Of a DNA stretch of 64,000 bases, positions 2,570 to 36,515 are shown piece by piece (position 1 is the first letter of the stretch; the number at the start of each line of letters is the position of its first letter). A model generated the notes under the pieces. The model searched no databases and had not been told where the DNA came from. It was given only the letters and a program-made list of their open reading frames with translations. Source of the DNA: Patescibacteria group bacterium UBA926. Its GTDB lineage: Bacteria; Patescibacteriota; Doudnabacteria; UBA920. Position numbers and translations under genes: made by a program. The DNA lies in NCBI GenBank assembly GCA_002293685.1, contig DBDS01000006.1, forward strand, positions 108,867 to 172,866, given 5' to 3'.

Positions 2570-5308
2570 ATGTCAATATTTAGTAAATTATTCAACTTCT
2601 CTTCTGGCGGTGGTTTGGGAAAATACCAATCAGAATTGGGTGTAATCAATGGCCTAGCAGAAGAAGTTTCTGCTTTATCCGATGACCAAATCCGCGCAGA
2701 AATTCAGGGTTTTAAAGATGAATTAAAATCCATTCAAGATGAGAGTAAGGTATTCAAGAAGTTAATAGAAATTCGTCCTCGCGTATTTGCACTAACTAGA
2801 GAAGCATCTAAACGAGCTCGTGGGCAATTTCATTACGACGTTCAAGTAATCGGCGGTTTGGTTTTATCGGAAGGACGTATTGCTGAGATGAAAACTGGTG
2901 AAGGTAAAACATTAACAGCAACTTTGCCGTTAGTCTTGTTTGCTTTGGCTGGACGTGGTACCCATTTGGTTACAGTTAATGATTACTTGGCTAGATGGCA
3001 GGCAAGCGACATGGGAAAGGTTTATGCTTTTCTTGGTTTATCTGTTGCAAGTATTCAACATGAAGCTTCGTTTCTATACGACGAATCCTATCAACCGGAG
3101 CAGGAAGAAATTGATGAAATCGAAGCGGGTACTCAGGGTTTAACTTTGGACGTGAAGCACATGAGACCGGTGCCAAGACAGGAAGCTTATCGAGCCGATA
3201 TCACATACGGAACAAACAATGAGTATGGATTTGATTATCTTCGCGATAATATGGTTCAAAGTGTGGATCAACTAAGACAACGCGATTTGTTTTATGCAAT
3301 TGTAGACGAAGTTGACAGCATTCTAATTGATGAAGCTCGGACTCCATTGATAATTTCCCAACCAGACTCTGAACCAACAGATAAGTATTATCAATTTTCT
3401 AAGATGGTAGACAAACTTCAAGATAAAGAAGATTATACTATTGATGAAAAACATAAAGCTGCCAGTTTGACTGATGACGGAATCACTAAAGTAGAAAAAA
3501 TTCTTAATGTCCAAAACATTTACGACACAAGCGCTGGTGTAACAACATTACATCATATTGAACAAGCTCTCCGTGCAAAAACTTTGTACAAGCGTGATCG
3601 CGATTACGTTATCCGTGATGGCGAAGTTGTCATTGTAGATGAATTCACAGGTCGGCTGATGTTTGGTCGACGTTACAGTCAAGGTTTACACCAAGCGATT
3701 GAAGCGAAAGAAAATGTAAAGATTCAACAAGAAAGTAAAACGTTAGCAACAATCACTTTCCAAAACTTATTCAGACTTTATTCCAGACTTTCTGGTATGA
3801 CCGGTACTGCTAAAACTGAAGAAGAAGAATTTTTCAAAATCTATCAGCTGGAAGTTACACAAATTCCTACCAATCAACCAATGGTTCGTATCGATCAATC
3901 CGATTTAGTATTTAAAAATGAACCAGGAAAATTTGCGGCAATTGCCAGAGATGTAAAAGAGCGTCATAAGAAAGGACAACCGGTTTTAATCGGTACAGTT
4001 AGTATTGCCAAAAATGAGTTGTTAGCAGAAGAACTCAAAAGAGCGGGCATTCCATTTGAAGTATTGAACGCTAAGAACCATGAACGTGAAGCGCAGATTA
4101 TCGCCCAAGCAGGAAGTTTTGGTGCAGTTACTGTTGCGACAAACATTGCTGGCCGTGGTGTAGATATTCTGCTCGGTGGAAATCCAGTTGATAAAGAAGA
4201 GGCTGAGCGCGTGCGTGAGGCCGGTGGATTAGCTGTAATCGGTACAGAACGTCATGAATCACGCCGCATCGACAATCAGCTACGTGGACGTTCCGGACGT
4301 CAGGGTGACCCAGGTTCAAGCCAATTTTACGTTTCCATGGAAGATGACTTGATGCGTTTGTTTGGTGGAGCTCGCATGCAAGGCATGATGGAAACTCTAA
4401 AGATTCCAGACGACCAACCAATCGAAGCGAAAATGATTTCGCGTTCAATTGAATCAGCTCAAAAGAAAATTGAAGGTCTTAACTTTGATACTCGTAAAAG
4501 TGTTCTTGAATTTGATGATGTCTTAAATCATCAACGTAAGAAAATTTATTCCCGTCGTCGCAAATATTTATCTGGAACTAAAGATCAGGAACCAATTAAA
4601 GGTGAGATTTTAGAATCACTTAAATCTAGACTTGCTGAAATTACTTCTGTTCATTTCGGGAACCTTGATTTCAAAGAAGCGTTAGAGCAAATTTCACTGG
4701 AAGCCAGTGCGATATTGCCAAATCTAACTGATGAAGTTAAAAATCAAATTTTTGAACGAACAACTTCCGCTGCAGACAGCGAGTTTGTAGTTTTAGATGA
4801 GCTTAATAAGTTGGCTGATGAAGCTATGGAGTCAAAGAGTAAAGAGATTGGTGAAGAGCTCTACGAAAATATTCTTCGTTCCATTACACTTCAAGCGATT
4901 GATAGACTTTGGATGGAACATTTGGACACTATGGACCACTTGCGTGACTCGGTTCGTTTGCGAGGTTACGGTATGCGTGACCCATTAGTTGAGTATAAAA
5001 AAGAAGGTCACTTATTATTCCAACGGCTGTTATCAGAAATCGATCAACAGATTTTAGGTGCTGCTTTAAGAATCGGTGTTGAAACTCATACGGACGACAA
5101 GGGTCAACAACACCATCATGCTACCATTAATATGACTGGTGGTTCAACCAACAATTCTGCACCTACAGCTGTAGCTGAGCAAAAAGATCCACGTGCGGGT
5201 GACATCGGCCGTAACGATCCGTGTTTCTGTGGTAGCGGTAAAAAGTATAAGAAGTGTGGCTTGCTGAATACGGCAGAACACATTAAAAACTTAGGAAAAA
5301 TCACATAA
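2570..5308 (+). CDS. secA: preprotein translocase ATPase SecA
   Basis: 912 aa. DEAD-motor motifs (MKTGEGKTL, DEVDSILIDEARTPLIIS). C-terminal zinc-binding tail CFCGSGKKYKKCG. The last ~16 codons lie inside or after the attL core and so are phage-supplied. Confidence 0.95.
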   Translation: MSIFSKLFNFSSGGGLGKYQSELGVINGLAEEVSALSDDQIRAEIQGFKDELKSIQDESKVFKKLIEIRPRVFALTREASKRARGQFHYDVQVIGGLVLSEGRIAEMKTGEGKTLTATLPLVLFALAGRGTHLVTVNDYLARWQASDMGKVYAFLGLSVASIQHEASFLYDESYQPEQEEIDEIEAGTQGLTLDVKHMRPVPRQEAYRADITYGTNNEYGFDYLRDNMVQSVDQLRQRDLFYAIVDEVDSILIDEARTPLIISQPDSEPTDKYYQFSKMVDKLQDKEDYTIDEKHKAASLTDDGITKVEKILNVQNIYDTSAGVTTLHHIEQALRAKTLYKRDRDYVIRDGEVVIVDEFTGRLMFGRRYSQGLHQAIEAKENVKIQQESKTLATITFQNLFRLYSRLSGMTGTAKTEEEEFFKIYQLEVTQIPTNQPMVRIDQSDLVFKNEPGKFAAIARDVKERHKKGQPVLIGTVSIAKNELLAEELKRAGIPFEVLNAKNHEREAQIIAQAGSFGAVTVATNIAGRGVDILLGGNPVDKEEAERVREAGGLAVIGTERHESRRIDNQLRGRSGRQGDPGSSQFYVSMEDDLMRLFGGARMQGMMETLKIPDDQPIEAKMISRSIESAQKKIEGLNFDTRKSVLEFDDVLNHQRKKIYSRRRKYLSGTKDQEPIKGEILESLKSRLAEITSVHFGNLDFKEALEQISLEASAILPNLTDEVKNQIFERTTSAADSEFVVLDELNKLADEAMESKSKEIGEELYENILRSITLQAIDRLWMEHLDTMDHLRDSVRLRGYGMRDPLVEYKKEGHLLFQRLLSEIDQQILGAALRIGVETHTDDKGQQHHHATINMTGGSTNNSAPTAVAEQKDPRAGDIGRNDPCFCGSGKKYKKCGLLNTAEHIKNLGKIT
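5239..5262. repeat. attL core (TAAAAAGTATAAgAAGTGtGGCTT) inside secA 3' end
   Basis: Matches 36449-36472 at 22 of 24 nt; identical 12-mer TAAAAAGTATAA. Confidence 0.75.
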
Positions 5309-5331
5309 CACCCAAATAAGACTAAAAGGTT

Positions 5332-5356
5332 AAACCCTGCGAAAGCAGGGTTTTTT
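5332..5356 (+). terminator. rho-independent terminator after secA
   Basis: AAACCCTGC-GAAA-GCAGGGTTTTTT hairpin plus T-run. Confidence 0.7.
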
Positions 5357-5622
5357 AATTGCCTTAAAAGGTCGCGGCGCCCTAGCCGACAATAGGGATT
5401 ATAAGAGCGTATATCTAACCAAAAAACAAAAATGCTAAAAACAATTTTATACATAGTGTTGGCAATAGTAGCTGTGTATATCCTGTGGCAAATTGCCACC
5501 TACGACTGGTGCCAAGTATGGTACGGCATAAAATGTATGCCCCCGTACTAGGACATACAGCCAGTAGTTAGTCAATTAAAACAAAAACAAAATGAAAACT
5601 AAATATATCAAGATTACCTACT

Positions 5623-5907
5623 TTGACAGCCCGTATAAAAAATTTATACCGCAGCCAAAGACCAAGAGAGCAAAGAACCATGGACAACGCAAATAAAGCA
5701 AGTTTGAGCCAACAAAGCCGTTTGCTAGAAATTCTACACAAGTATTGCCCTGAGTATTACGACTATAACGATAGCCGCATGTGGGATTTTACGGAAACAC
5801 TAACTAAGCGGCATGCCAGCGAACTCATTACCGATTATTACGACGGCAAGGTTGATAGGCTCAAAGCTGAATTTTATCAATTTATTAAAGAGAGAAAAGA
5901 ACAATGA
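5623..5907 (+). CDS. hypothetical early protein
   Basis: ORF start is TTG inside a TTGACA hexamer; ATG at 5680 (75 aa) is a plausible alternative start. First gene after attL. Confidence 0.4.
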   Translation: MTARIKNLYRSQRPREQRTMDNANKASLSQQSRLLEILHKYCPEYYDYNDSRMWDFTETLTKRHASELITDYYDGKVDRLKAEFYQFIKERKEQ

Positions 5908-6941
5908 ACCAAGTAACTACAGGCGCAATTGTGTTTAGAAAAGCTGAACGCAAACGCGCAAAAGCACGCATAGCATTATGCGCCCCAGCTGGCGGGGGGA
6001 AAACCCACAGCGCCCTACTCATTGCCAAGGGCTTAGGCGGCAAAATCGCAGTAATTGACACTGAGAACGGCAGCGCGGAACTTGAGGCAGGCAAGCCTAA
6101 TATCCCTGAGTTTGATGTTATCACCATGCACGCGCCGTTTGACCCGATTAAGTATATTGCCGCAATTGACGCAGCGGAAAAAGCGGGCTACGACATTGTG
6201 ATTATTGACAGCCTTACCCACGCATGGGCAGGCACAGGCGGTTTGCTTGATAAGGTAGACACCATTAGCAAGGCAAGCAAAAGCGGCAATTCCTACACAG
6301 CATGGCGTGATGTTACCCCATTGCACAACAAGCTGGTAGACAAAATGCTGCAAAGCACCTGCCACATTATTGCAACCATGCGCAGCAAAACTGACTATGT
6401 GCTGGAAACCAACAGCAAAGGCGGCATGACCCCTAAGAAAGTTGGATTAGCGCCAGTGCAGCGCGAGGGCATGGACTATGAATTTACGGTTGTATTGGAC
6501 ATTGACCAGTCAAGCCATGTGGCTACTGCCACCAAAGACCGCACCAGTTTGTTTGACGGCGCACCATTTGTGCCAAGCCCTGACACTGGGGAAATTTTGC
6601 TTAACTGGTTTAACAGCGGAAAAGCTGAGGAAATGCCAGCCACCCCTGAACCTACCGCACCAGCCGAACAGCCAGCGCAAACGGAAACCGAACCGCAGGC
6701 AGAACCCGAAAAGCCAAAGCCGACTGTAGCACCATTAACTGAACGGGCAACAATTACCCAGCTGGACGAACTTAGAAAGGTAGCGTTAGACACTGCCGCA
6801 GTAAAGGACGACGAAAACCTAGTTAAGTGGATAAGCCTAATGTTTAATGTTGAGGTTAAAAAAGTAACTGACTTAAGCGCAGCCCAAGTTAAGGAAATTA
6901 TGGACGCGGTTAAAGCACTAGACGAGGCACCAAATGTCTAA
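5904..6941 (+). CDS. RecA-like recombination ATPase, Sak4/AAA_24 family
   Basis: Walker A APAGGGKTHSAL, Walker B DIVIIDSLTHAW, size and phage early-region context. Pro/Glu-rich low-complexity C-terminus. Confidence 0.65.
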   Translation: MNQVTTGAIVFRKAERKRAKARIALCAPAGGGKTHSALLIAKGLGGKIAVIDTENGSAELEAGKPNIPEFDVITMHAPFDPIKYIAAIDAAEKAGYDIVIIDSLTHAWAGTGGLLDKVDTISKASKSGNSYTAWRDVTPLHNKLVDKMLQSTCHIIATMRSKTDYVLETNSKGGMTPKKVGLAPVQREGMDYEFTVVLDIDQSSHVATATKDRTSLFDGAPFVPSPDTGEILLNWFNSGKAEEMPATPEPTAPAEQPAQTETEPQAEPEKPKPTVAPLTERATITQLDELRKVALDTAAVKDDENLVKWISLMFNVEVKKVTDLSAAQVKEIMDAVKALDEAPNV

Positions 6942-7377: not shown

Positions 7378-7392
7378 TAAAGGATTAAACCA

Positions 7393-7772: not shown

Positions 7773-8252
7773 ATGGAAACCTACACAGAAATTAAAACAT
7801 TAAAAGCACAGGTGGAATTTGTACTACAAACCCGCCACGAAACCCGTAACAGCGACGCTGAACTGGTAACGGTGGTTTGCGGGAAATTTGGCTTAGACCC
7901 TATTAAAACAGCCTCAAGCATTGAGCGTTGCCGCAGGTGGTTTAACCAGCGCATGGAATACCTGCCAACTGACGAAAAGATTGCGCACCAGCGAAAAATT
8001 AACATTGAGGAATGGCGGGCGGCAATGGGCTACAAGGCAAGCAAGCTGAACTGGGCGCCGCCAAGCAAGCTGAATGAGCCGATTATAACCCGCGTAAAAA
8101 GCGAAACCTACCCATACAAGGATTATATTATTACCGATTTGGGAACCAGCATAGAGTGTACCTGCCCGCGGTTTACCTACCACAAAACCTGCAAGCATGT
8201 GAAAAAGCGCAGCGAGCAAATCTCATTGTCATTTACCCAGCCATTATTTTAA
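7773..8252 (+). CDS. hypothetical protein with SWIM-type zinc finger (CxCx10CxH)
   Basis: C-terminal ECTCPRFTYHKTCKHV fits the SWIM pattern. Confidence 0.4.
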   Translation: METYTEIKTLKAQVEFVLQTRHETRNSDAELVTVVCGKFGLDPIKTASSIERCRRWFNQRMEYLPTDEKIAHQRKINIEEWRAAMGYKASKLNWAPPSKLNEPIITRVKSETYPYKDYIITDLGTSIECTCPRFTYHKTCKHVKKRSEQISLSFTQPLF

Positions 8253-8257
8253 CTGCC

Positions 8258-9217
8258 ATGGGCGAAAAACTACTTATTCCAAATACAACCCAAATACCAA
8301 ACCTAATTTTAGACCATTTGCTGCCAGCGTTAGCGGAACCTGAAACCAAATGTATTTTGTATATTTGCCGCAGAACTTTTGGCTTTGGGAAAAGCAAAGA
8401 CCGCATTAGCCTTAGCCAATTTACGCGCGGAATTAAAACAAAGGACGGGCAAGTGCTAGACCATGGCACTGGGCTTAGCCGCCCAGCAGTAGTTTGGGCA
8501 TTACAGCGATTAGTGGCAGCGGGCGTTATTTACACTGAACAAACTACAAAAGGCAATTTTTTTGAGCTAAACCTGAATTTGAACATAGAGGCTGCGCTAA
8601 AAATCATTAGCGACATGCGCCTACAGCAGAACAAAGAGCGTAAGGAAAAGCCTAAACAGACCACCCTATTTAAAGTAGTTAACCGCGTTAACCAGTTAAC
8701 GCCGTTAACCAAAAGTGGTAAACGCGGTTTACCAAAAGTAGTTAACGAGGTTAACCCACAAAACCAAGAGAAACCAAGTAACAAAACCAAGACTATTGCA
8801 ACCGCTGACGCGGCTGCGACTGTGGATAAAAAACAGCATAAACCACACACAGAATTTATTGAGTTTTGGCATAACACGGTTAAGCAGACTAGAGGAATAA
8901 AGCCACTAATTGCACCTATGGACGGCAAGAACCTAAAGCGTGTGCTGGAAATGAACATACTGACACCCCTGCAATTACAGCAATTAGCTATTTATTTCCT
9001 AGCCCACGGTAGTTTTAAGAGTTTTAACCCCAGCATATCTGTACTGCTCAGTAACGGCATACTCAATGGACTTATGAACCGTATGCAGAATGACCCGAAC
9101 TTTTGGCGGGAACTTGATAGCTTTTCTACCCATTACTTACGGCAACCTAGCAAAAACAACCACGCCTTGGTCGGTAGGCTGGCAGAACTTAAAGCAAAGT
9201 TGTTTGTAATGAAGTAA
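8258..9217 (+). CDS. putative replication initiator / replisome organiser (winged-helix)
   Basis: ATG at 8258 just after the previous stop. SLSQFTRGIK...GLSRPAVVWALQRLVAAGVI resembles the wHTH of phage replication initiators. Early-region position. Confidence 0.4.
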   Translation: MGEKLLIPNTTQIPNLILDHLLPALAEPETKCILYICRRTFGFGKSKDRISLSQFTRGIKTKDGQVLDHGTGLSRPAVVWALQRLVAAGVIYTEQTTKGNFFELNLNLNIEAALKIISDMRLQQNKERKEKPKQTTLFKVVNRVNQLTPLTKSGKRGLPKVVNEVNPQNQEKPSNKTKTIATADAAATVDKKQHKPHTEFIEFWHNTVKQTRGIKPLIAPMDGKNLKRVLEMNILTPLQLQQLAIYFLAHGSFKSFNPSISVLLSNGILNGLMNRMQNDPNFWRELDSFSTHYLRQPSKNNHALVGRLAELKAKLFVMK

Positions 9218-12326: not shown

Positions 12327-12860
12327 ATGACCATTAAATTTGTAATAGCGGGCAATCCCTTTGACCCAAAGGGCAACCCAGTGCCTTACACCCGAACCAC
12401 CCAAGGCACCAAGCATACTGAGCGTTACCAGCGTTATGTTAGGTGGGTTAGCTATGTGCAGCAACATTTTTGCGCACAGAACCCTGACGCCACTGGCATG
12501 GGCAAATACACGCTAAATATATTTAGACACAAAAAGCCCATACTGCTTGCCCCCGAATTATGCGCCCGTGTGGATATTAAGATACAATGGGCAAATAAAA
12601 AGGGTGGCGACGGCGACAATGTGCTAAAGGGAATACTGGACGCGCTTTTTGTGCAAGACAAATGGGTTAGCGGCAGTTACGACTGGGCAATAGACGCGGA
12701 ACACGGCGGGGCTGTTGAGGTTAAAATAACCTTTATGCACATGGACACTGGCGAGCCTGTGGCATTAAATGAGCTAACCGACTTGAGCGTTAAGTGCGTA
12801 GCCCATAGCAACGAACTGGTGCGGAAAATGGCAGAGAAAAAACTAAAGATTAAACTATAA
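12327..12860 (+). CDS. rusA: Holliday-junction resolvase, RusA family
   Basis: GDGDNVLKGILDALF matches the RusA catalytic Asp cluster. Size and phage context fit. Confidence 0.65.
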   Translation: MTIKFVIAGNPFDPKGNPVPYTRTTQGTKHTERYQRYVRWVSYVQQHFCAQNPDATGMGKYTLNIFRHKKPILLAPELCARVDIKIQWANKKGGDGDNVLKGILDALFVQDKWVSGSYDWAIDAEHGGAVEVKITFMHMDTGEPVALNELTDLSVKCVAHSNELVRKMAEKKLKIKL

Positions 12861-23121: not shown

Positions 23122-23127
23122 GCCATT

Positions 23128-24785: not shown

Positions 24786-24809
24786 TAAAAATAATTAAGG
24801 CATAAACCA

Positions 24810-25145
24810 ATGGACACAGAAAATACAATCACGCTTGAAACCCCCTCTAAAAAAACACTGGTATTGCGTAAATTTTTTACCGCACGACAGCGCAACGAAT
24901 TGCGCGGCATTTACCTAAAGAACCTGAAAGTTAGCCCGCAAGGCGGCACAGCCGAGGTTGGCGAACTTAACGGGGAAATTGTAGAGATTGCAGAGCGCAA
25001 GCTGCTGGAATTGGCGGTTATTAGCTATGACGGTAACACCGAAACCCCAGTTGAATTGTTGCTAGACGCAAGCCCTGCTGAATATGACTTTGCGGTAGCA
25101 GAGGCAGGAAAGGCAGACACGGGTTTTTTAGCCCAGACGAAATAG
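24810..25145 (+). CDS. tail assembly chaperone (G-like)
   Basis: 111 aa between major tail and tape measure. Slippery T_TTT_TTA near the 3' end. Confidence 0.6.
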   Translation: MDTENTITLETPSKKTLVLRKFFTARQRNELRGIYLKNLKVSPQGGTAEVGELNGEIVEIAERKLLELAVISYDGNTETPVELLLDASPAEYDFAVAEAGKADTGFLAQTK

Positions 25146-25336
25146 AATACACCGCTTACCTGTGGAAACGGTACTTTAAGGGCAGCCGAGCAGAACTAAC
25201 ACAAGATATGCTAGCTGCCCTTATTTGCAAAGAGTACGGCTGGACACGCGAACAGTACCTAGACCAACCCGCTTACTGGCTGGACATAATTACCAGCATG
25301 CTGCAAGCAGAGGGTGCGGGAAACAAGAATAATTAA
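24810..25336 (+). CDS. tail assembly chaperone, -1 frameshift extension product (GT-like)
   Basis: A -1 slip at T_TTT_TTA (25124-25130) continues into a 69-codon open frame ending 25336, just before the tape-measure start. Confidence 0.5.
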
Positions 25337-25347
25337 GCACCAACGCT

Positions 25348-27021
25348 ATGGCTGAAACAGACATTAGCATATTAGTTAGAGTAAAAGACGAGGCAAGCGC
25401 CGCAATGGGCAAAATTAGCGGCAGCATAAATAACCTGCAACCAGCTTTTAAAACAATGACTGTTGCGGGTACTGCTGCGTTGGGTGCAATTGGTGCTGTA
25501 GCGTACAAGTCTATTAAAGATTATGCCGAGGCAGAAAAAGCCCAAAAGCAATTAGAGCATGCCACATTGCAGGTTGCCAAAGGAACCCGCGAGCAGTTAG
25601 AGGCAATGAAAGCCTTGAGTAATGAGCTTGAACGCAAAGGCGTACTAGACGGCGACGCAATAGCTACTGGCTTGGCGCAGTTGCAGACTTTTGGCTTAAG
25701 CACTGACATGGTAACAAAGCTGGGCAGCAGCATGGCTGACTTAGCCGTTAACCAATTTGGCGTAAATGCGGGGGCTGAGGAATTGACCCAAACAGCAAAC
25801 ATTATGGCGAAAGCCCTTAATGGTCAATTTGGCGTGCTTGAAAAAAGCGGAATTAGATTTACCGAGGCACAGCGTAAGCTCATACAGTTTGGAACCGAAA
25901 GCGAACGGGTTGCGGCATTGCAAGAGGGATTGGCACAAAACTTGAAATACACCAACGAGGTTGCCAGCCAAACAGTAGAGGGTAGCATGGCTAAGTTGCA
26001 GGTACAGCTGGGCAACATTAGCGAAAACATAGGGGCGGCATTACTGCCAGCACTGACGCAGTTGGTTACTTACATTACCCCGATTATTGAAAAGGTTGTT
26101 AACTGGTCAAGCGAAAACCCTAAACTTATTTCTACTATATTAGCCGTTGGCGCAGGTGTTGCGGCACTTGTTACCGCGCTAGGCGCAATTGGGCTTATTA
26201 TTCCCGCTGTTATTAGCGGTGTTACCGCGCTAGGCACCGCCTTGATGTTTTTGGCTGCCAACCCTATAGGCATAGTCATTGTTGCAGTGGCAGCATTGGT
26301 AGCTGGCATTGTTTTGGTTATTAAACACTGGGATTGGGTAAAGGAAAAAACGCTTGAGGTGTGGAACTCATTACCAAACTTTGTACAAACCGCCATACAG
26401 ATTTTGTTAATTCCTTTGACTGGCTTAATTGGCGTAATTGTTTTAATTGTTACCCATTGGGAAACCTTGAAAAATGCGACCATAGCGGTTTGGAACGCAA
26501 TCACTACCGCCGTAATTGGCAAATTTAACGAGATGAAAGCAGGCATACAGGCTGGTTATGAAATTATACTTGCTATTGCCAATGGTTTTAGTGCGGCTTA
26601 TACAGCAGCCTCAGACGCAATGTGGAATGGGATAAAAAACAAAGTGGCAGGCGTGTGGGATAGCATAAAATCAATTGTTACTGGCAGTATCAACTTTTTA
26701 ATAGACAAGATTAACAGCTTTATAAACAAAGTAAACTCAGTAGCAAGCAAAGCTGCTGGGATTGTTAAAATCAACGCCCCGCAAATTCCTAACATACCTT
26801 ACTTGGCACAGGGTGGGATTGTTACCAAACCTACTATTGCAATGATTGGCGAGGCGGGCGCTGAGGCGGTTATACCTTTGAGCAAAGCAGATAAATACGG
26901 CTTAGGTGGCGGTAGCGGTTTAACCGTGGTTTTGCAGGGTACCTTTATGACCAGCCGAGAGCAAGCAGACTATTTTGGCGACATTTTAGCTGGCGTTATT
27001 AAGCAACAAATAAGGATTTAA
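25348..27021 (+). CDS. tail tape measure protein
   Basis: 557 aa. Coiled-coil N-terminus, central hydrophobic helices, C-terminal IGEAGAEAVIPL motif typical of TMPs. Confidence 0.8.
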   Translation: MAETDISILVRVKDEASAAMGKISGSINNLQPAFKTMTVAGTAALGAIGAVAYKSIKDYAEAEKAQKQLEHATLQVAKGTREQLEAMKALSNELERKGVLDGDAIATGLAQLQTFGLSTDMVTKLGSSMADLAVNQFGVNAGAEELTQTANIMAKALNGQFGVLEKSGIRFTEAQRKLIQFGTESERVAALQEGLAQNLKYTNEVASQTVEGSMAKLQVQLGNISENIGAALLPALTQLVTYITPIIEKVVNWSSENPKLISTILAVGAGVAALVTALGAIGLIIPAVISGVTALGTALMFLAANPIGIVIVAVAALVAGIVLVIKHWDWVKEKTLEVWNSLPNFVQTAIQILLIPLTGLIGVIVLIVTHWETLKNATIAVWNAITTAVIGKFNEMKAGIQAGYEIILAIANGFSAAYTAASDAMWNGIKNKVAGVWDSIKSIVTGSINFLIDKINSFINKVNSVASKAAGIVKINAPQIPNIPYLAQGGIVTKPTIAMIGEAGAEAVIPLSKADKYGLGGGSGLTVVLQGTFMTSREQADYFGDILAGVIKQQIRI

Positions 27022-27024
27022 CCA

Positions 27025-28446
27025 ATGGCTTTAGTATTAAAAATTAACACCGTTGACCGCAGCAGTTGGGTTGACTGGAAAAGCGTTACCAAGGACGAGG
27101 GGCTTACTAAAGAGCCTGATACCTTGGCTTTTAACATAAAGGAAACGCCCAGCAAGACCATACCAGCAGTGGGGGCTACAGTGCAGCTGCTTGAGGACGC
27201 GGTAAAGATTTTTGAGGGTACTATAGTTGACCGTCGCAGTTTGGTTATTGGCGGCGTGCTTAAAGGTTACTCATTTGTTTGCAAGGACTTGGTGCATGAG
27301 TTTGATAAAACACTGGTTAGCAAGGCTTACAACAATGAGGCGATAGACGATATTGTGGCTGACATTGTTAGCACCTTTACCAGCGGGTTTACCACCGCGA
27401 ATGTTGAAACTGGCTTACCGACCATAGACAGCGTGCGCTTTAATTACGAACAACCTAGCAAGTGTTTGCAAAAATTGGCTGATTTGATTGGCTATGACTG
27501 GTACATAGATTATGACGGCGACATACACTTTTTTAATGTAAGCAACAATGCCGCGCCATTTGATGTAGAGGACGATAACGGCAAGGTCATTAGTGATAGC
27601 CTGAACTTTGACCAAAACATTATAGAGCTGCGCAACAGCGTAATTATTAGAGGTGGGGAATACTTGAACAACTTAACTGATACCACTACCCCTGACTTGT
27701 ACGAGGCAGACGGCAACCAGCGCGTGTTTACCCAAATTTACCGCTACAGCAATGTTGAGGTTACGGTAGCAGGCGTAGCCAAGACCGTGGGCATAGACAA
27801 CATAGACAACCCTGCTAGCTTTGACTGTTTATACAACTACACCGAAAAGGCTATTAAATTCCCTGAGGCAAGCAAGCCAACCGCAGGGCAGATTGTTAAA
27901 GTATTTGGCGACGCCCACATACCGCTTATTGCCAAGGTGCGCGACCAAATCAGTATATCTACTTACGGCGAGTACCAAGGCTTAATAGTAGACAAAACCA
28001 TTGAAAGTATTGACGAGGCACATACCCGTGCAAAGGCTGAGCTGACTAAATGGGCAGACGGGGCATATAGTGGCGGGTTTAGAACCACGCAGACAGGGCT
28101 AAAAACTGGGCAATATATCCGAGTTAACAGCGCCCTGTTTGGTGTTGATAGCTACTTTAAGATTAACCGCATTACTGCACGGGCAAACAATTACGGCACC
28201 CTAGAATACACGGTTAAGTTTTTGGCAAGTGGCGAACTTACCTTTGCTGACATTATGGTTGGATTGCTAAGTAAAGACCGCCAAAACATTAGCGTGGCAG
28301 ACGACGAAGTTATACAGCGCCTTGAGGTATTTCCTGAAACCGTAACCCTAGTGGAAACGAGCGTTACCGCAACTAAAACAAGCCCGCCATACAAGTGGGG
28401 GGTAGCTGCCAATGATTTTGACTGGAATTTTGGCACATGGAGTTAA
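27025..28446 (+). CDS. distal tail protein (Dit)-like
   Basis: 473 aa immediately after the TMP. Confidence 0.45.
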   Translation: MALVLKINTVDRSSWVDWKSVTKDEGLTKEPDTLAFNIKETPSKTIPAVGATVQLLEDAVKIFEGTIVDRRSLVIGGVLKGYSFVCKDLVHEFDKTLVSKAYNNEAIDDIVADIVSTFTSGFTTANVETGLPTIDSVRFNYEQPSKCLQKLADLIGYDWYIDYDGDIHFFNVSNNAAPFDVEDDNGKVISDSLNFDQNIIELRNSVIIRGGEYLNNLTDTTTPDLYEADGNQRVFTQIYRYSNVEVTVAGVAKTVGIDNIDNPASFDCLYNYTEKAIKFPEASKPTAGQIVKVFGDAHIPLIAKVRDQISISTYGEYQGLIVDKTIESIDEAHTRAKAELTKWADGAYSGGFRTTQTGLKTGQYIRVNSALFGVDSYFKINRITARANNYGTLEYTVKFLASGELTFADIMVGLLSKDRQNISVADDEVIQRLEVFPETVTLVETSVTATKTSPPYKWGVAANDFDWNFGTWS

Positions 28447-28450
28447 AACT

Positions 28451-29110
28451 ATGAAACATATAATACCCGAAAACTTAAAAGGCATTACTGGCAAATTTTA
28501 CGCTAAGCGTTACCGCAAGGGAACTGTAGATAAAGTGCAGCCATTGTTTAGTAAAGCCAACATTATAAAAAAGCGCGAGGCGTGGGCGTGGTTTGCTGTT
28601 GACCAACTAGGCTTTAACTGGTTAGTTCCTTTTGCAAAGAGGTTGCAGCGCAAGTGGGTGCAATTAGAAAGCAAGGCAGAGGTAATACTGAATGAAAACT
28701 TTTTAGGCATTGGTGCGGTAACAGACAATTTGGTAGTAAGCAGCAGCAATCACGGGCGCAATCTGATTTGCCAAAGACTGGCAGGGCTGACTACTTACGA
28801 CTTGGCAGTTGGTTATGTGGAAATGGGAACCAGCGCAACAGCACCAACCAATGCTGATACAGACTTAAACACTGCTGTAGTGCGGGCAGGCAGCCCTGCA
28901 TATACGATTGCTAATAATGTGCTTACACTGCGATTTTTCCTAGCTGACGGCACGGTAGCTAATAACACTTATAACGAAATGGGTACATTTATTGGCGGTA
29001 GCGCAACCTTAGGCAGCGGGCAAATGTGGAACCACGCATTGTTTAGCAGCCCTTATGTAAAGGCAAGTGGCGAAGATACCACAATAGAATTAGTAATAAC
29101 AGTAAATTAA
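28451..29110 (+). CDS. hypothetical tail tip protein
   Basis: ATG at 28451 (MKHII...), 219 aa, in the tail tip module. Confidence 0.35.
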   Translation: MKHIIPENLKGITGKFYAKRYRKGTVDKVQPLFSKANIIKKREAWAWFAVDQLGFNWLVPFAKRLQRKWVQLESKAEVILNENFLGIGAVTDNLVVSSSNHGRNLICQRLAGLTTYDLAVGYVEMGTSATAPTNADTDLNTAVVRAGSPAYTIANNVLTLRFFLADGTVANNTYNEMGTFIGGSATLGSGQMWNHALFSSPYVKASGEDTTIELVITVN

Positions 29111-29120
29111 ATAAAACTAT

Positions 29121-30422
29121 ATGAAAAGCAGCGCAGTAGCGGCAGGCGATACAGCCACAGCCGCACAATACAATAATTTAAGACAAGACGCCAGCGCGTC
29201 AAGTTTTTTGTACCCGTCTGCACAATCTAGCCCAAATATGACAATAAAAATTGAGGCTGGACTAGGATTTATAGGACAGACGAAAGTTGAATATGCAGGG
29301 GGGAATAGCCCAACAATGACAGCGCCAACTGTTAACCCACGCATTGACTTGGTTTATATTGATAGTGCTGGAACTATTACAATCGCAAATGGGGCAGAGG
29401 CAGCCAGCCCAAGCGCACCAGCACTTGTAAATAATACTATACCAATTTGCTATATCTACCACCGAACAACAGCGACAGGTATTTATGATACTGATACTGC
29501 TGGGCAATCTTATATCTATAAAGATTTGCGAGCTTTTCTTACGAACCCAGCAGTTGTGCAGGGTGGTAGTAATATGCAAATTTTTGAAGCCGTTGGGGCT
29601 GGAACTTGGAACAAGCCTACAGGTACAGGTGCAAATAGTGTTGTTATTGTTGAAGTTTGGGGTAGCGGTGGCGGCGGTGGTAATGGTGCTAACGCTACTG
29701 GCGGCGGTGGCGGCGGTGGCGGTGCATATTTTAAGAAAGTTTTTAAAGCGTCTGAACTAGGCTCAACAGAAAGTATCTCAGTAGCGCAAGGTGGCGGCGG
29801 TGGCTCAACTAACGGGGCAGCAGGAAACAACGGCGCCAGCTCTACTTTTGGTAGTGGTGCAACCCTAGTTACAGGATATGGCGGCGGGCGTGGACGAGAG
29901 GGCGTTGCAGACGGGCAAGGCGGCGGCGGTGGCATGTATGGTGCTGGCGAGGGCGGCGGCGTCGGTGGTAGTGGTATTGGTGGTAATGGTGGTTTAGGGG
30001 GCGCACCCAATATACCAAATAATGCAACCTTTACCCACCCGTCTGGTTATGGATTAGGTGCTAACGCTGGCAATGGTATGAACGCAGGGAATAGCACTAC
30101 TGGTGGTGGTGGCGGTGCAGATAGCACACAAACCCCAGGCAGTAGCGTGTTTGGTGGTGGTGGTGGCGGTGCAAGCGGGAATGGTGGGGTTAGTGTTTAC
30201 GGTGGTGGTGGTGGTGGCGGTGCAGGTGCCACAACAGTATCAACTTGTTTAGGCGGTGTAAGCCCCTTTGGTGGGAAAGGTGGTAATGCAGGTAATGGAA
30301 CAATAGCAGCAGAGGACGGACAACAGCCAGGCGGTGGTGGCGGCGGCTCAAGGGGTAATTCCGCTGGTAGCAGAGCTGGCAATGGCGGTAATGGGAAAGT
30401 AGTAGTAACAACTATATTCTAA
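29121..30422 (+). CDS. glycine-rich putative tail fibre / receptor-binding protein
   Basis: 433 aa. N-terminal 190 aa ordinary. The remainder is poly-Gly blocks (GGGGG runs) interspersed with N/S/T/A. Confidence 0.5.
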   Translation: MKSSAVAAGDTATAAQYNNLRQDASASSFLYPSAQSSPNMTIKIEAGLGFIGQTKVEYAGGNSPTMTAPTVNPRIDLVYIDSAGTITIANGAEAASPSAPALVNNTIPICYIYHRTTATGIYDTDTAGQSYIYKDLRAFLTNPAVVQGGSNMQIFEAVGAGTWNKPTGTGANSVVIVEVWGSGGGGGNGANATGGGGGGGGAYFKKVFKASELGSTESISVAQGGGGGSTNGAAGNNGASSTFGSGATLVTGYGGGRGREGVADGQGGGGGMYGAGEGGGVGGSGIGGNGGLGGAPNIPNNATFTHPSGYGLGANAGNGMNAGNSTTGGGGGADSTQTPGSSVFGGGGGGASGNGGVSVYGGGGGGGAGATTVSTCLGGVSPFGGKGGNAGNGTIAAEDGQQPGGGGGGSRGNSAGSRAGNGGNGKVVVTTIF

Positions 30423-30426
30423 AAAA

Positions 30427-31107
30427 ATGAAAAAAATAATTTACACACTTAATATAAATAACTACGCCCCCGAATTAAGGGCGTTAACGCGCCCGCACTT
30501 AGAGTTTTACGCTAAAAGGATTGGCGCCGAAATTATAGATATTACAGAGCGCAAATACCCACACATGCCTGTGGTTTATGAAAAGCTGCAAATCTATGAT
30601 TTAGCACAAAAATATAGAGCAGATTGGAATATATACATTGACAGCGACTGCTTAATACACCCTGAAACAATAGATTTTACTAACTTTTTAGATAAAAGCA
30701 CTGTTTTCCAAGTAGGTAGCGATATGGCGGCTATTAGGTGGCGTTACGATAAATATTTTTTGCGCGACGGTAGAAATATTGGAACATGTAATTGGTTTAC
30801 CATTTTTAGCGACTGGTGCATTGATTTATATAAACCGCTTGAAGATATGGAACTAGACGAGGTAATGCAATATATGTATCCAACCGTTATAGAAAGAACC
30901 ACAGTAGTAGATACTGCCCATTTGATTGACGATTTTGTGTTATCAAGGAATGTAGCGAGGTATGGGTTGAAGTACCAAAATTTAAAAGAATTGTTGGAAA
31001 AAATTGGCTTGCCAAATGCAAACTTTTTTTGGCACGAATACCTAATTACCACCCAAGAAAAAGTGGCAAAGGCTAAGGAAGTCATAAAACTATGGAAAAT
31101 TAACTAA
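30427..31107 (+). CDS. DxD-motif glycosyltransferase-like protein (AT-rich moron)
   Basis: 226 aa. YDLAQKYRADWNIYIDSDCLI resembles the sugar-binding DxD region of GT32/GT8-type transferases. G+C clearly below flanking phage DNA. Confidence 0.4.
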   Translation: MKKIIYTLNINNYAPELRALTRPHLEFYAKRIGAEIIDITERKYPHMPVVYEKLQIYDLAQKYRADWNIYIDSDCLIHPETIDFTNFLDKSTVFQVGSDMAAIRWRYDKYFLRDGRNIGTCNWFTIFSDWCIDLYKPLEDMELDEVMQYMYPTVIERTTVVDTAHLIDDFVLSRNVARYGLKYQNLKELLEKIGLPNANFFWHEYLITTQEKVAKAKEVIKLWKIN

Positions 31108-31538: not shown

Positions 31539-32990
31539 ATGGATAACGAACTATACCCGTTGGGTGCGGTTAAAGACCCTGTAGACGAACGCGACATACT
31601 CTATGCTACCGTGGCTGAACCAGTGGCTAGTTTGCCGCGCAAGTTTAGCCTGCGCGATAAGCAAAGCCCTGTGGCACGGCAAAAGTACGGCAGCTGTGTT
31701 GGATTTGCCAATAAGAGCGCGTGCGAATACCACCGTAAACGACTGCTTAATATAGACGAGGTTTTAAGTGGCAGATTTACATATGGCAGGTGCAAAGAAT
31801 TAGACGGCAGACCAGACGACGAGGGAACCTACCCACGCTTAGCACTGAGCGTTGCATTTGGCAAAGGCTTGGTGCTAGATAAGGATTTTTCTAACTCTAA
31901 ACCGCCCAGCCCCACCCACGCAGACTACATAAAGGCACCAGCTGACGAAATAACAGAGGGTGCCATACAAAGGGCAATGGTGGGTGGGTTTGTGCGGGTG
32001 CGCAACCTACAGGAACTTAAACAGGCATTGGTTGAACACGGCACGGTGCTTATTACCGTAAGTGTGTACACGCAGTTTGACAATCCCGAAAACGACGGTT
32101 TTATACCATGGGCAGCACAGCGAGCCAGCAGAGGCAGCCACGCAATTGTTTGCACTGGCTATGACGACGATTTTAGAGGCATTGGGGCAATTGAAGTTAA
32201 GAACAACTGGGGCGAGAACTGGGGCGACGACGGCTACGGCTGGATTGCTTACGACTACGAGGGCGAGGGGGCAACCCCATGCTGGGATATGTGGGTTATT
32301 GTTGGCGAGGATAAAGTTAATGCGCAGCTAACCAGTGGGGCGCCTATAAATTTGGTTTACCCAGTAGATACGCCAACCCCGTTTGTTACCCAACCTTTTG
32401 GCGCCCGCCCTGAGTATTACAAAAAATACGGCATGGCAGGACATAACGGCATTGACTTTAGAACCCGCGACACTAATAAACGGATATTAGCCTGCGACGA
32501 CGGCGAAGTTATCTTTGCTGGCAATGACGGCAGTTATGGGCAATCAGTAAGGATTAAGCACAGCTGGGGCATGAGCATTTACGCACATAACAGCCAAATA
32601 GTAATACCGCTTTATGAAAATGACGGCAGCAGCCCTAAGAGAGTAAAGCGTGGGCAACATATTGCTATAGCAGGGGCTAGCGGCGACACTGGCAACCCGC
32701 CCGCAGAACATTGCCACTTTGGGATTAGAATTAACGGCGTTAAGAACCCAGCCTACTTTGACTGGGTAGACCCAGCGCCATATTTAAAGAAAGGCGAACG
32801 CATGATTGGATACAAGCACCCAAGCAACAGCACAGTATACCTGCCTATTGGCGGTGGTACTTTAGTGCCTATTACCGACTGGGCTACTTTTTTAGCTTTG
32901 GGCGGCAGCGAAAGCAGTATTGTACAGCTCAGTGCTGAACAGTTTGCAAAGTATACCGTGGCAAACGGCGCGGTATTTACCAAGGCTTAA
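31539..32990 (+). CDS. endolysin with papain-like C1 cysteine peptidase + M23 metallopeptidase domains
   Basis: C1 triad contexts GSCVGFA / GSHAIVCTGYDD / NNWGENWGDDGY. M23 motifs HNGIDF and EHCHFGI. C-terminal ~90 aa possible binding domain. Confidence 0.65.
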   Translation: MDNELYPLGAVKDPVDERDILYATVAEPVASLPRKFSLRDKQSPVARQKYGSCVGFANKSACEYHRKRLLNIDEVLSGRFTYGRCKELDGRPDDEGTYPRLALSVAFGKGLVLDKDFSNSKPPSPTHADYIKAPADEITEGAIQRAMVGGFVRVRNLQELKQALVEHGTVLITVSVYTQFDNPENDGFIPWAAQRASRGSHAIVCTGYDDDFRGIGAIEVKNNWGENWGDDGYGWIAYDYEGEGATPCWDMWVIVGEDKVNAQLTSGAPINLVYPVDTPTPFVTQPFGARPEYYKKYGMAGHNGIDFRTRDTNKRILACDDGEVIFAGNDGSYGQSVRIKHSWGMSIYAHNSQIVIPLYENDGSSPKRVKRGQHIAIAGASGDTGNPPAEHCHFGIRINGVKNPAYFDWVDPAPYLKKGERMIGYKHPSNSTVYLPIGGGTLVPITDWATFLALGGSESSIVQLSAEQFAKYTVANGAVFTKA

Positions 32991-33539: not shown

Positions 33540-33540
33540 A

Positions 33541-34506: not shown

Positions 34507-34523
34507 GTGTTTTATTAAGCAAA

Positions 34524-35432
34524 ATGAAATTTAGCGAGGCAATCAAAGAATTTAGCGCATGGAAAGGCTTTAGCGTGAAAAATAATACCGTAAGTGGCTA
34601 TACTGGCGATTTACGGCTGCTTGCTTTATATTTGCGCGACCCCGAAATTACCGCAATTAGTTGGGGCGACATACAGCAATACCAAACCGATTGCATAAAA
34701 CTGGGCTGGGATAGCAATACTTTTGTGCGCAAGTTTATAGCTTACCGCAAGTTTTTTGCTTACTGGCACAGCAAAGACCCAAAAGTGCTTGACCCCGAAT
34801 GGATACCAGTAATGTATGCCGAAATGAAACAGCCGCGGGTTATAGACGAGGCAAACTATAAAAAGCTACTTGGGATTTTAAGCAAAGACAGCAAAGACCC
34901 GCGGCACCATAGGAACCGCGCCATGATACAGCTACTATGGGATACTGGCGCCCGCAACGGCGAACTGCTGAGTTTGAACCTAGACGACATTGACTTAAAT
35001 AAAATGTGTGCCGTGATACGCACCGAAAAGGCAAAGTTTAGACGGCAGTACAGGCAAATTTTTTGGACAAAGGAAACCAACGAGAGTATAGGCAATTGGT
35101 TGTCATTGCGCGAAAAGTTAAACAGCAAGTATTGGCTGATTAAAGACAAGGACGCGCTATTTATTTCTGTTACGGGTGTAAAGGCTGGCACTAGGCTAAA
35201 GGTTGGCGGGTTTGCGGAAATGCTGAGGCGGTACTGCGAAAAGGCGGGTATTGACCACTATAACCCACACAGCTTTAGGCACCACATGGGGCATGACATT
35301 ATCAAGAAAGGCGGCAGCAATTCTGATGTAAGCAACATACTAGGGCATAGCAGCTTGCAGAGCAGTTTTATTTACACAATGTTAAATGACAAAGAACTGG
35401 AAAAGAGATACAGGCAATTTAAAGGTCGTTAA
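34524..35432 (+). CDS. int: tyrosine integrase / site-specific recombinase
   Basis: C-terminal catalytic region HSFRHHMGH...ILGHSSLQSSFIYT (R..H..R..Y). N-terminal SAM-like domain. Adjacent to attR. Confidence 0.85.
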   Translation: MKFSEAIKEFSAWKGFSVKNNTVSGYTGDLRLLALYLRDPEITAISWGDIQQYQTDCIKLGWDSNTFVRKFIAYRKFFAYWHSKDPKVLDPEWIPVMYAEMKQPRVIDEANYKKLLGILSKDSKDPRHHRNRAMIQLLWDTGARNGELLSLNLDDIDLNKMCAVIRTEKAKFRRQYRQIFWTKETNESIGNWLSLREKLNSKYWLIKDKDALFISVTGVKAGTRLKVGGFAEMLRRYCEKAGIDHYNPHSFRHHMGHDIIKKGGSNSDVSNILGHSSLQSSFIYTMLNDKELEKRYRQFKGR

Positions 35433-35490
35433 TTGCCAACAGATAGTAAAGTGTTATAATTAAGGCAAATAAGCAATTAAGGCATAAACC

Positions 35491-36015
35491 ATGGACAACC
35501 AAACACAGCCAACCAAAAAGGCTATTTACAAGCGCTGGTGGTTTTGGGTGTTGGCAGTTGTTGTGCTGTTTGGCGTCATTGGCGCATTTGACGGCGACGG
35601 CAGCAAGACCGAACCTACTACCCAAGCTGAGAGCAGCACCACACAGGCTTACGCATTTGATGTGCCAAGTTTAATTGGCAAAAATGTAGACGAGGTTAAA
35701 GCAGTATTGGGCAACCCTACAAGCGATACCGAACCTACGCAGGCACAGTTAGCCAATGGGCTGACCAAGGAATGGGAAAAGACATTTACCAAAGACGGCG
35801 TTAGCATGCTAGTAACATACAGACTAGCAGACCGCAGCGTGGTAGACTTTTTCATTTCTACCAATGACCCAAGCGGTATGACAAAAGACACCGCTGCGCT
35901 TAAAAAACTGGGCAACATTACCCTAAGCGACAGCAGGTATAAAATTGACTTTGTAGAGGCGCTGAAAGACAAGAGCCAATACACTGGCATTAAAATTACC
36001 CCTACTGGACTATAA
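35491..36015 (+). CDS. membrane-anchored extracytoplasmic protein (lysogenic conversion / exclusion candidate)
   Basis: N-terminal TM WWFWVLAVVVLFGVIGAF, then a Thr/Ser-rich linker and a ~120-aa domain. Sits between int and attR. Confidence 0.45.
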   Translation: MDNQTQPTKKAIYKRWWFWVLAVVVLFGVIGAFDGDGSKTEPTTQAESSTTQAYAFDVPSLIGKNVDEVKAVLGNPTSDTEPTQAQLANGLTKEWEKTFTKDGVSMLVTYRLADRSVVDFFISTNDPSGMTKDTAALKKLGNITLSDSRYKIDFVEALKDKSQYTGIKITPTGL

Positions 36016-36018
36016 TAG

Positions 36019-36047: not shown

Positions 36048-36087
36048 ATTTGCACCTGTTGGCAAAAGGGTGTATACTTAACTTACT

Positions 36088-36300
36088 ATGCTAAATAACA
36101 CAGAAATTACAAATAAAGGTGGGCGCCCCATGAACACTGAGGCAGTTAAGTTGGTAAAAACCCTAAAAGACGACAATAACCTTAGTTTTAGAGAGATACT
36201 AGAAGTTATGCAGAAAAGGCTACGCCGCAAGCTGGATATTAAGACCATTTACAGGTGGTACCATTACCGCCTACCAGCTGTGGATAAAACGAGGGGCTAA
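36088..36300 (+). CDS. small HTH-like protein (excisionase/regulator candidate)
   Basis: 70 aa, basic, near attR. Flanked by repeated TGTTGGCAAAA...TATACT motifs. Confidence 0.35.
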   Translation: MLNNTEITNKGGRPMNTEAVKLVKTLKDDNNLSFREILEVMQKRLRRKLDIKTIYRWYHYRLPAVDKTRG

Positions 36301-36303
36301 CCC

Positions 36304-36332
36304 TTGCAAGTGTTGGCAAAACCTGCTATACT
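36304..36332 (+). promoter_or_regulatory. sigma-70-like promoter (TTGCAA-17-TATACT) reading toward attR
   Basis: Good hexamers. Contains the TGTTGGCAAAA motif also present at 36055-36065. Confidence 0.45.
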
Positions 36333-36434
36333 GTATATGTACATTGAAAACTAGCTTTTAACCACTGCCTGCCTACCGAACCCGTAATACACCACATTAT
36401 GGGCTGGGTAGGCAAGCAGGCAGGGTTTAACCCC

Positions 36435-36515
36435 TTATGTGGGTGTGATAAAAAGTATAAAAAGTGCGGCTTAGCAAACACAGCTGAGCATCAACGAAAC
36501 TTAGCAAAGCAATAA
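36435..36515 (+). pseudogene. secA: displaced secA 3'-terminal fragment at attR
   Basis: Encodes CGCDKKYKKCGLANTAEHQRNLAKQ*, homologous to the SecA C-terminus at 5220-5308. Confidence 0.65.
36449..36472. repeat. attR core (TAAAAAGTATAAaAAGTGcGGCTT)
   Basis: Direct repeat of the attL core. Followed by a diverged secA 3' remnant. Confidence 0.75.

Follow-up and report, generated by a model that had tools for sequence, protein, structure and literature searches.

Evidence for a temperate phage integrated into the 3' end of secA in a Patescibacteria bacterium, with a phage-borne replacement for the SecA tail

The stretch of DNA analysed here (the window; 64,000 nucleotides, positions 108,867 to 172,866 of contig DBDS01000006.1, assembly GCA_002293685.1) comes from Patescibacteria group bacterium UBA926, of the candidate phyla radiation (CPR), and holds, between secA and a uracil-DNA glycosylase (UDG) family gene (udg), a block of about 31 kb that an original prediction, made from the sequence alone, had read as a prophage inserted into the 3' end of secA. 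Beyond the block, udg is followed by an M1 aminopeptidase gene and then by secD (features in Table 1). The direct repeat described in that prediction is real, lying at 5239-5262 (TAAAAAGTATAAGAAGTGTGGCTT) and 36449-36472 (TAAAAAGTATAAAAAGTGCGGCTT) with identity at 22/24 positions; with up to 3 mismatches allowed, nothing else in the window matches, and 100 shuffled sequences gave no match. They are part of a longer ungapped homology of 74 nt (70% identity; 5225-5298 versus 36435-36508) whose two members are spaced exactly 31,210 bp apart. Composition and gene content also agree with the predicted block of higher G+C carrying virion, lysis and recombination genes, the G+C fraction being 0.465 within it versus 0.389 to its left and 0.374 to its right, and its approximately 46 open reading frames (ORFs) all lie on the + strand, none of them broken. 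The tyrosine integrase gene (int) does stand at the right end of the block, as proposed, but about 1 kb from the right junction (attR) rather than adjoining it, with two ORFs between, a 174-aa ORF weakly resembling superinfection-exclusion (Sie) proteins and then a 70-aa ORF. Scans for tRNA genes and Rfam families gave no match in the window, and the target is therefore not an RNA gene.

The secA gene of the window ends in ...CFCGSGKKYKKCGLLNTAEHIKNLGKIT and a stop, and next to the right repeat a frame without a gene body (36438-36515) reads CGCDKKYKKCGLANTAEHQRNLAKQ and a stop. This frame, together with the tails of related SecA proteins, bears out the claimed homology of the 36435-36515 fragment to the SecA C-terminus. 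As displaced host sequence the fragment stands for 36461-36515, but not for its 'CGCD' part (36438-36448), which belongs to the phage arm. The secA gene itself is chimeric: it is host sequence up to 5238, continues through a shared core at 5239-5250, and receives its last 19 codons and stop (5251-5308) from the phage.

By looking up contigs that encode the 174-aa integrase neighbour, we located two independent metagenome contigs that carry the phage attachment site (attP), so that the predicted presence of a secA 3' end on attP can be seen directly. In the first (L019), a phage-only Joint Genome Institute (JGI) contig of 31,213 bp, attP lies inside the contig: int is followed by the 174-aa gene, a 56-aa gene and then ...ccccttatgtgggtgtga TAAAAAGTATAA gaagtgtggcttgctgaatacgg...atcacataa, after which come a terminator and the genes of the left phage end. 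The second (L020; 33,855 bp) runs from secA to the same attP-type junction, at which it stops; both thus have the structure of phage arm, TAAAAAGTATAA and a tail encoding LLNTAEHIKNLGKIT and a stop. The attP sequence equals attR to the left of the 12-mer and the left junction (attL) to its right, and the exchange therefore occurred within TAAAAAGTATAA (5239-5250/36449-36460). Accordingly, of the 24-bp repeat proposed as the attachment site only the 12-mer is a shared core, and the two later mismatches, the G/A and T/C differences past the core, are phage and host alleles.

Assembly break points fall at the same place. A SPAdes contig of 31,222 bp, found in 6 samples, has the length 36460 - 5239 + 1 and terminates on the last base of the core, and three host contigs from three samples all begin at 36406, or 36460 - 54, as expected for a k = 55 node, or fork, common to attR and attP. 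The 12-bp repeat is too short to produce false joins at such k. The attP sequence is thus certain; ongoing excision is not proven by it, as the junction, with phage and host coverages of 9.66:4.49, also fits two phage copies integrated in tandem at secA, an element that may be quiescent in the sampled populations. We regard this explanation as possible, although the less probable one. The coverage ratio, measured in ERZ761590, is 2.15 and so near 2; no fork corresponding to the empty bacterial site (attB) was seen, the host contigs beginning at 36406 and not at 36449; SecA of the attB type is missing from the protein collection we searched; and in another CPR host two distinct phages of the same clade appear to lie in tandem at secA. 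However, other samples of the same series assemble through attR without a fork at 7x-118x (NODE_21, NODE_82, NODE_19), and the attP junction is therefore not fixed in the population. Genome-length phage-only contigs also occur in several independent samples, and a second copy would itself require a recent attP-mediated integration.

To see what the locus looks like without the block, we sought relatives of the window SecA in a collection of 5.8 billion proteins, in which the closest were P0002 (94% identical) and P0003 (90%). The loci with SecA at these identities (L012 and L013) show the arrangement that the original prediction had proposed to look for, secA directly before udg: the secA stop is followed by 8 nt and then udg, and the gene order murB, S30AE, a 115-aa gene, secA, udg, pepN, secD, secF is that of the window minus 31 kb. 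The opposite arrangement, in which relatives would keep the same 31 kb between secA and ung without flanking repeats, was not what these two loci held. Their SecA proteins are 911 aa each, with C-termini ...CGLANTSEHQQNLAKQ and ...CGLANTVEHQQNLLKQ, and the ends of P0002 and P0003 (...KKYKKCGLANTSEHQQNLAKQ and ...KKYKKCGLANTVEHQQNLLKQ) match the attR fragment and not the present tail of the window SecA. At the DNA level, the empty sites align with attL on the left side of the repeat and with attR on its right side, including the 8-nt spacer and the start of udg. Together with the attP contigs, the relatives' tails uphold the proposal that the host tail was replaced by a phage version and the original parked at attR. 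The guess of a CPR-like host was also sound, since the same 90% SecA cluster holds a named Patescibacteria group bacterium, and the closest named SecA homologues are from Patescibacteria and Doudnabacteria.

Judged from the window by itself, either tail could equally well be the SecA end, so that the assignment could in principle be reversed, with the tail on secA native and the fragment beside udg phage-borne. We consider this practically excluded: attP bears the LLNTAEHIKNLGKIT tail, and the closest relatives, which are free of the lysogen, end in ...LANT.EHQQNL.KQ and share the 8-nt spacer and udg start with attR. The relatives' tails, the alignment to the empty sites and the attP sequence rule the reversal out.

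Taken together, these observations make it very probable that the block is a siphovirus-like temperate phage, 31,210 bp in length, which the tyrosine integrase that it encodes inserted into the secA 3' end of a CPR bacterium; every testable element of the predicted insertion with tail replacement held. Strand exchange takes place inside the 12-bp TAAAAAGTATAA, within the KKYKK codons of the SEC-C motif, and attP to the right of the core brings a phage version of the 19 final SecA codons with their stop, followed by an intrinsic terminator. The outcome of integration is therefore a full-length chimeric SecA at attL and a native tail left orphaned at attR, 8 nt before udg.

Table 1. Positions of features in the window (all on the + strand)
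Feature	Position	Strand	Basis or remark
secA, now chimeric	2570..5308	+	912 aa; Pfam SecA_DEAD, PP_bind, P-loop, SW, SEC-C
attL core TAAAAAGTATAA (crossover region)	5239..5250	+	inside codons G-KKYK of the SEC-C motif
Prophage body	5251..36448	+	core-to-core unit 31,210 bp; G+C contrast, phage-only contigs of 31,213/31,222 bp, absence from L012/L013
Phage-supplied SecA tail, (K)KCGLLNTAEHIKNLGKIT and stop	5251..5308	+	identical in attP contigs L019 and L020
Intrinsic terminator, phage-supplied, just past the new secA stop	5332..5359	+	9-bp stem, GAAA loop, T run (stem-loop 5332-5353)
Tyrosine integrase, 302 aa, XerC/D-like size; founder of the clade directed to secA tails	34524..35432	+	PF00589, E = 2.5e-28; PF02899
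Promoter-like site before the 174-aa ORF	35433-35460	+	consensus scan, 11/12 match
Promoter-like TTGCAA-17-TATACT, TG-extended	36304..36332	+	faces across attR to udg; consensus match only
Int-proximal attP arm	36365..36448	+	imperfect hairpin 36365-36419; 36420-36449 complementary to 5305-5340 (inverted repeats I1, I3, I4)
attR core TAAAAAGTATAA	36449..36460	+	attP comparison, contig break points
Displaced native SecA tail, (K)KCGLANTAEHQRNLAKQ and stop, without gene body	36461..36515	+	matches P0002/P0003 tails and their DNA
Host uracil-DNA glycosylase family gene (udg)	36524..37081	+	PF03167, E = 4e-30; 8 nt past the displaced stop, as in empty sites
AAA_24 ATPase (early/replication module)	5904..6941	+	PF13479, E = 3e-26; kept beside attP in related phages
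RepO-like replication initiator, internal iterons 8672-8767	8156..9217	+	PHROG replication initiation O-like, E = 2e-14
RusA-like Holliday junction resolvase	12327..12860	+	phrog_6537, E = 7e-22
Large terminase subunit	14525..16021	+	phrog_38, E = 1e-64
Portal protein fused to Mu F-like domain	16449..18647	+	PF04860, E = 1e-60; PF04233, E = 6e-13
Head maturation protease / scaffold	18670..19944	+	phrog_80, E = 2e-20
Major capsid protein, HK97-type	20015..21208	+	PF05065, E = 3e-34
Head-tail adaptor, neck/tail completion protein, tail terminator (three ORFs)	22109..23565	+	phrog_442, phrog_5, phrog_4204
Tail module: tail protein, tape measure (25348-27021), hub-like and fibre-like proteins	23796..31107	+	phrog_290, phrog_991 (E = 4e-40), phrog_400/196, phrog_863
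Endolysin-like peptidase (C1 + M23)	31539..32990	+	PHROG peptidase/endolysin; precomputed PF00112, PF01551 on identical protein
174-aa ORF, weakly superinfection-exclusion-like	35491..36015	+	phrog_8545, E = 1e-8, residues 2-49 only

The core corresponds to codons G-K-K-Y-K, located after the second cysteine and before the third in a C-x-C-x8-C pattern, such that the first two SEC-C ligands of the chimera are host-encoded and the remainder phage-encoded. From the core on, the phage tail reads KKYKKCGLLNTAEHIKNLGKIT and the host tail KKYKKCGLANTAEHQRNLAKQ, each followed by a stop. Over KKCGL.NTAEH, the 11 codons after the core, the two differ by 8 synonymous changes versus 1 non-synonymous change, while the last 7 codons vary more freely; this is the pattern that had been described as diverged in DNA but conserved in protein, and such synonymous-rich divergence indicates selection on the encoded peptide, though the phage copy would be translated only in lysogens. 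The metal-binding domain of SecA, with the motif CXCX8C(H/C), binds SecB and ribosomes, and E. coli lacking only this domain of SecA grows poorly (PMC6620043). The phage would have to keep the tail peptide because the domain matters for growth in this way. The canonical C-X-C-X8-C-(H/C) spacing is not found in either tail, native and phage sequences both reading C-F-C-GSGKKYKK-C-G, and the Pfam SEC-C model nevertheless matches the window SecA above its cut-off (30.8 versus 20.4 bits). Among SecA proteins of this CPR group (P0001-P0060), the pattern is likewise C-x-C-x8-C-G, with glycine in place of His/Cys and a conserved L.N(T/S).EH after it. The fourth metal ligand may be the conserved histidine 7 residues after the glycine position. 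The phage-completed SecA is full length with a SEC-C match and may be functional, as the 8 synonymous versus 1 non-synonymous changes and the presence of lysogens at up to 118x coverage hint indirectly.

The integrase contains, by Pfam, only a SAM-like core-binding domain (residues 20-80) and the catalytic domain (106-290), and its catalytic residues R144, K169, H249, R252, H275 and Y284 are invariant in an alignment with 7 homologues. No Pfam match to a lambda-type N-terminal arm-binding domain was obtained in the 302-aa protein, although a missing match is not proof of absence. Homologues occur on 6 IMG/VR contigs (48-56% identical) and at least 184 times in public metagenome contigs, of which 80 were fetched (50-64% identical); those with a named source come only from a Patescibacteria group bacterium, Candidatus Uhrbacteria, Komeilibacteria and Moranbacteria. 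We translated 86 fetched loci (525 kb) in six frames and scanned them for SecA tail ends. A strict motif, [KR][KR][YFW][KR][KRQ][CY], had 43 matches, 38 of them on the integrase strand and 180-980 bp downstream of int, and the tails so found mostly read KK(Y/F/W)K(K/R)C(H/C)G-x-stop or KKYK(K/R)CGLL.T.EH.... With a looser motif, a SecA tail end lay at most 1.6 kb downstream of int (0.2-1.4 kb) in 51/86 loci, at least 700 bp of downstream sequence being available in 64, and only 20 matches fell in the remaining approximately 946 kb of strand-bases. Ahead of the KK codons, most loci have a broken frame or one that bears no relation to SecA (e.g. PLWHFLH-stop-KKYKKCHGK-stop), and the junction therefore lies at these codons throughout the clade.

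The genes that follow the tail separate these loci into two types. In attR-type loci the tail precedes a SecD homologue (11 loci) or UDG (2 loci), in line with hosts that have the CPR-like order secA-(udg)-secDF, and in attP-type loci (L022, L023/L040, L026/L070, L031 and L082) it precedes AAA_24 and RepO-like genes. At two further loci (L068 and L090) a genuine-looking SecA end (EHPCGSGKKYKKCHGK and ACGCGKKYKKCHGR, each with a stop) lies approximately 1.09 kb upstream of int and not downstream, which suggests another gene order with int beside attL. The original prediction therefore understated the case, as the phage is not a one-off but a member of a large integrase clade with secA as its target. 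This clade is apparently widespread across CPR bacteria, directed to the secA tail, and undescribed. We infer that its members use the KKYKK codons as a stretch of near-invariant DNA across hosts, much as other integrases use tRNA genes.

Two longer contigs of the clade give views of other lysogens. Ga0078972_1003448 (47,372 bp; L109, L043) holds a second complete prophage between secA and udg in another host, in the order murB, S30AE, secA, AAA_24, RepO, the rest of the phage, int, the arm, AKW joined to KKCGLLNTPEHQMNMMKGTGIKREEKVGG and a stop, and later udg. Its integrase is 53% identical to that of the window, and its SecA (898 aa, 68% identical to the window SecA) ends in KKYKKCHGRN and a stop. 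Here a long native tail of the CGL..EH..GG type has been displaced by a short canonical CHG tail (CHGRN) from the phage, and integration can therefore alter tail architecture. The second contig, Ga0207433_10000814 (69,971 bp; L108, L031, L042), reads secA (ending CHGK and a stop), phage 1, int, arm, KKFKKCHGRN with a stop, phage 2 and a second int, an arrangement that suggests two distinct phages of the clade integrated in tandem. It ends in a repeat, with a junction identical to the phage 1 tail, and so fits more than one order and number of copies.

Just past the new secA stop the phage supplies a strong intrinsic terminator, and the related phages examined (L022/L108, L023, L026, L031 and L082) all have an equivalent one after their tails. 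Because the prophage is co-oriented with secA and directly downstream of it, this terminator would shield the phage early genes from secA transcription. At empty sites the downstream host genes are probably co-transcribed with secA, because udg starts only 8 nt past it; in the lysogen, udg and the genes after it lie behind 31 kb of phage. The two promoter-like sites at the right end of the phage point towards these genes, and TTGACT-17-TATAAT and TACAAT sites are found in the same arm of L023 and L026. Such right-end phage promoters would drive the host udg, pepN and secDF genes that were formerly coupled to secA.

The attP region has a strongly folded predicted structure (-89.8 kcal/mol, z = -9.8 versus shuffles; L019 5850-6075, equal to 36340-36460 joined to 5251-5355). 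Nested inverted repeats lie on both sides of the core there, one of them overlapping the terminator. In the predicted attP fold a long-range stem supplants the terminator, whereas the attL fold keeps it. The minimum-energy folds of the related attP regions of L022, L023 and L026 retain the terminator, though complementary segments of 9-10 nt exist in them; L082 has none. That attP could act as an antiterminator is, from these modelled folds, a speculative idea. More broadly, integration might serve jointly as a lysogeny switch and as a means of SecA remodelling, a proposal we put forward tentatively and hold to be unlikely as a whole. The idea builds on the co-orientation of all the genes and on the failure to recognise a repressor. 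In the circular genome, promoters of the int-proximal arm would read across attP into the early genes, and in this phage the arm may pair with the 5' half of the terminator; once integrated, the early genes would lie behind secA and an intact terminator, and the phage promoters would be redirected to udg-pepN-secDF. Exchange of the metal-binding tail may in turn alter SecA regulation or ribosome binding in lysogens, and, if so, the tail swap would amount to lysogenic conversion of the secretion motor.

Several observations weigh against integration by a functional temperate phage and its proposed consequences, in addition to the fit of the attP junction and coverage to a tandem lysogen. An empty site of the same strain was not found, and the protein collection does not contain SecA of the predicted attB type (911 or 896 aa), so that attB is reconstructed from attL, attR, attP and the 90-94% relatives, whose core differs at 1/12 positions. 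Neither a repressor nor an excisionase was recognised by PHROGs and Pfam among the prophage ORFs, including about 30 small ORFs. On Ga0078972_1003448, attL (AAATATAAGAAGTGCCAC) and attR (AAGTGGAAAAAATGCGGC) share no evident identical stretch as long as 7 bp. Finally, the promoters are called by consensus match, at no more than about twice the frequency in shuffles.

The search for attB had a particular reach. A scan of the genome_contigs collection with UDG returned only Parcubacteria relatives at 43% identity and no species-level empty site. A degenerate attL/attR/attB/attP pattern, which matches the window and 9 fetched loci, had no match in viral_contigs or metagenome_contigs, and these negatives say nothing on attB because both collections lack this organism's contigs. 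The organism's JGI contigs (e.g. 3300005689) can be reached by exact-protein look-up and lie outside these pattern scans.

The missing repressor and excisionase, and the fact that the complete same-strain contigs are all lysogens, would also fit a defective, fixed prophage remnant or a non-phage island in which the two SecA tail copies are a relic duplication. We think this very unlikely, as the virion, lysis, replication and integrase genes are complete and intact with no broken ORFs, the attP junction occurs in independent assemblies, the block is absent from the 90-94% relatives, and the design of int plus tail is kept across many diverged phages. An integrated temperate phage remains our reading of the locus.

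By its predicted genes, which include the hallmark terminase, portal, HK97-type capsid, tail and lysis functions, the block is a siphovirus-like tailed prophage (Caudoviricetes). No holin or small terminase was recognised by PHROGs and Pfam among the approximately 30 small ORFs, and deposited phage genomes include no close relative, the integrase being at most 28% and the large terminase at most 27% identical. The one-strand layout, without a divergent repressor/cro-type pair, is unusual for a temperate phage. Inside the RepO-like gene, 3-4 copies of AAAGTAGTTAACnnGGTTAACC at 23-nt spacing (8672-8767) are probably iterons of the phage replication origin, as in lambda O. Four phage genes from different modules have in common a motif of about 35 nt (..AATAATTAAGGCATAAACCAATG..) that ends at the start codon (7365-7399, 11282-11316, 24782-24816 and 35464-35498) and may be a shared translation-initiation or regulatory element. 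At 29650-30350, many repeats of the GGTGGTGGCGG type encode glycine-rich stretches in a 433-aa tail-fibre-like ORF (29121-30422).

For CPR/Patescibacteria, in which defined phage-host pairs are scarce and genetic tools scarcer still, the locus provides a complete temperate phage with attL, attR and attP at base-pair resolution and an inferred attB. The short integrase, from a clade whose landing site in an essential gene is near-invariant over many CPR lineages, is a candidate for CPR integration vectors, and the signature of int plus SecA tail is a simple marker for tying uncultured viral contigs to secA-bearing hosts. The finding adds secA to the protein genes that serve as gene-restoring attachment sites, and a phage peptide that completes the SecA metal-binding domain is a natural experiment on what the tail requires.

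Full-text literature searches for secA as an attachment site gave nothing relevant, though a report outside the searchable literature is possible, and the only entry of this kind in the supplements to a large integration-target survey is a 'secY/secA suppressor protein'. A close parallel is with phage 21 and e14, which integrate at the 3' end of icd in Escherichia coli and whose attP carries an alternative 3' end. As in those elements, a tyrosine integrase uses an attB in the 3' coding end of an essential or housekeeping gene, the phage brings an in-frame replacement end with mostly synonymous changes, and the original is displaced to the far junction. Unlike them, the target is the zinc-finger motif of secA in a CPR host, the integrase is short and XerC/D-like without a detected arm-binding domain, and the tail type can change, as in the related host where a long CGL..EH tail gave way to a short CHG one.

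Gene-restoring integration is also described for tRNA genes (Islander; PMC4383910). Islands and prophages in tRNA and tmRNA genes share the same anatomy and a short, highly conserved landing pad (PMC4383910), whereas here the pad lies in a protein gene, its conservation comes from the peptide motif KKYKKC and not from RNA structure, and the integrase sits at the end beside the displaced fragment. The dusA-specific integrases likewise form a distinct clade bound to one conserved protein gene in many genomes, with prophage or island cargo (PMC4482086); they use the 5' end of dusA, mainly in Proteobacteria, in contrast to the 3' end of secA in Patescibacteria, and no close sequence relationship to them is detectable, the best deposited-phage matches being at most 28% identical and Xer-like. 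A component of the export machinery serves as attB for Enterococcus phage phiEf11 as well, which attaches in ffs, the 4.5S RNA of the signal recognition particle (PMC12540744), and which also has attP close to the integrase gene; there, however, a Firmicute RNA gene is used and the identical core spans 27 nt, versus the SecA motor protein and a 12-nt core here. Within Patescibacteria, prophages with predicted att sites have been reported from Absconditicoccaceae, which are different phages in another CPR lineage that uses genetic code 25, and the accessible text of that preprint mentions neither a secA target nor an attP/attB reconstruction (bioRxiv 10.1101/2024.03.08.584096). Set beside these systems, the integration logic is the classical gene-restoring one of the icd and tRNA type and not a new principle; what appears to be new is the use of the secA SEC-C motif as the target, together with the integrase clade and CPR as the host group.

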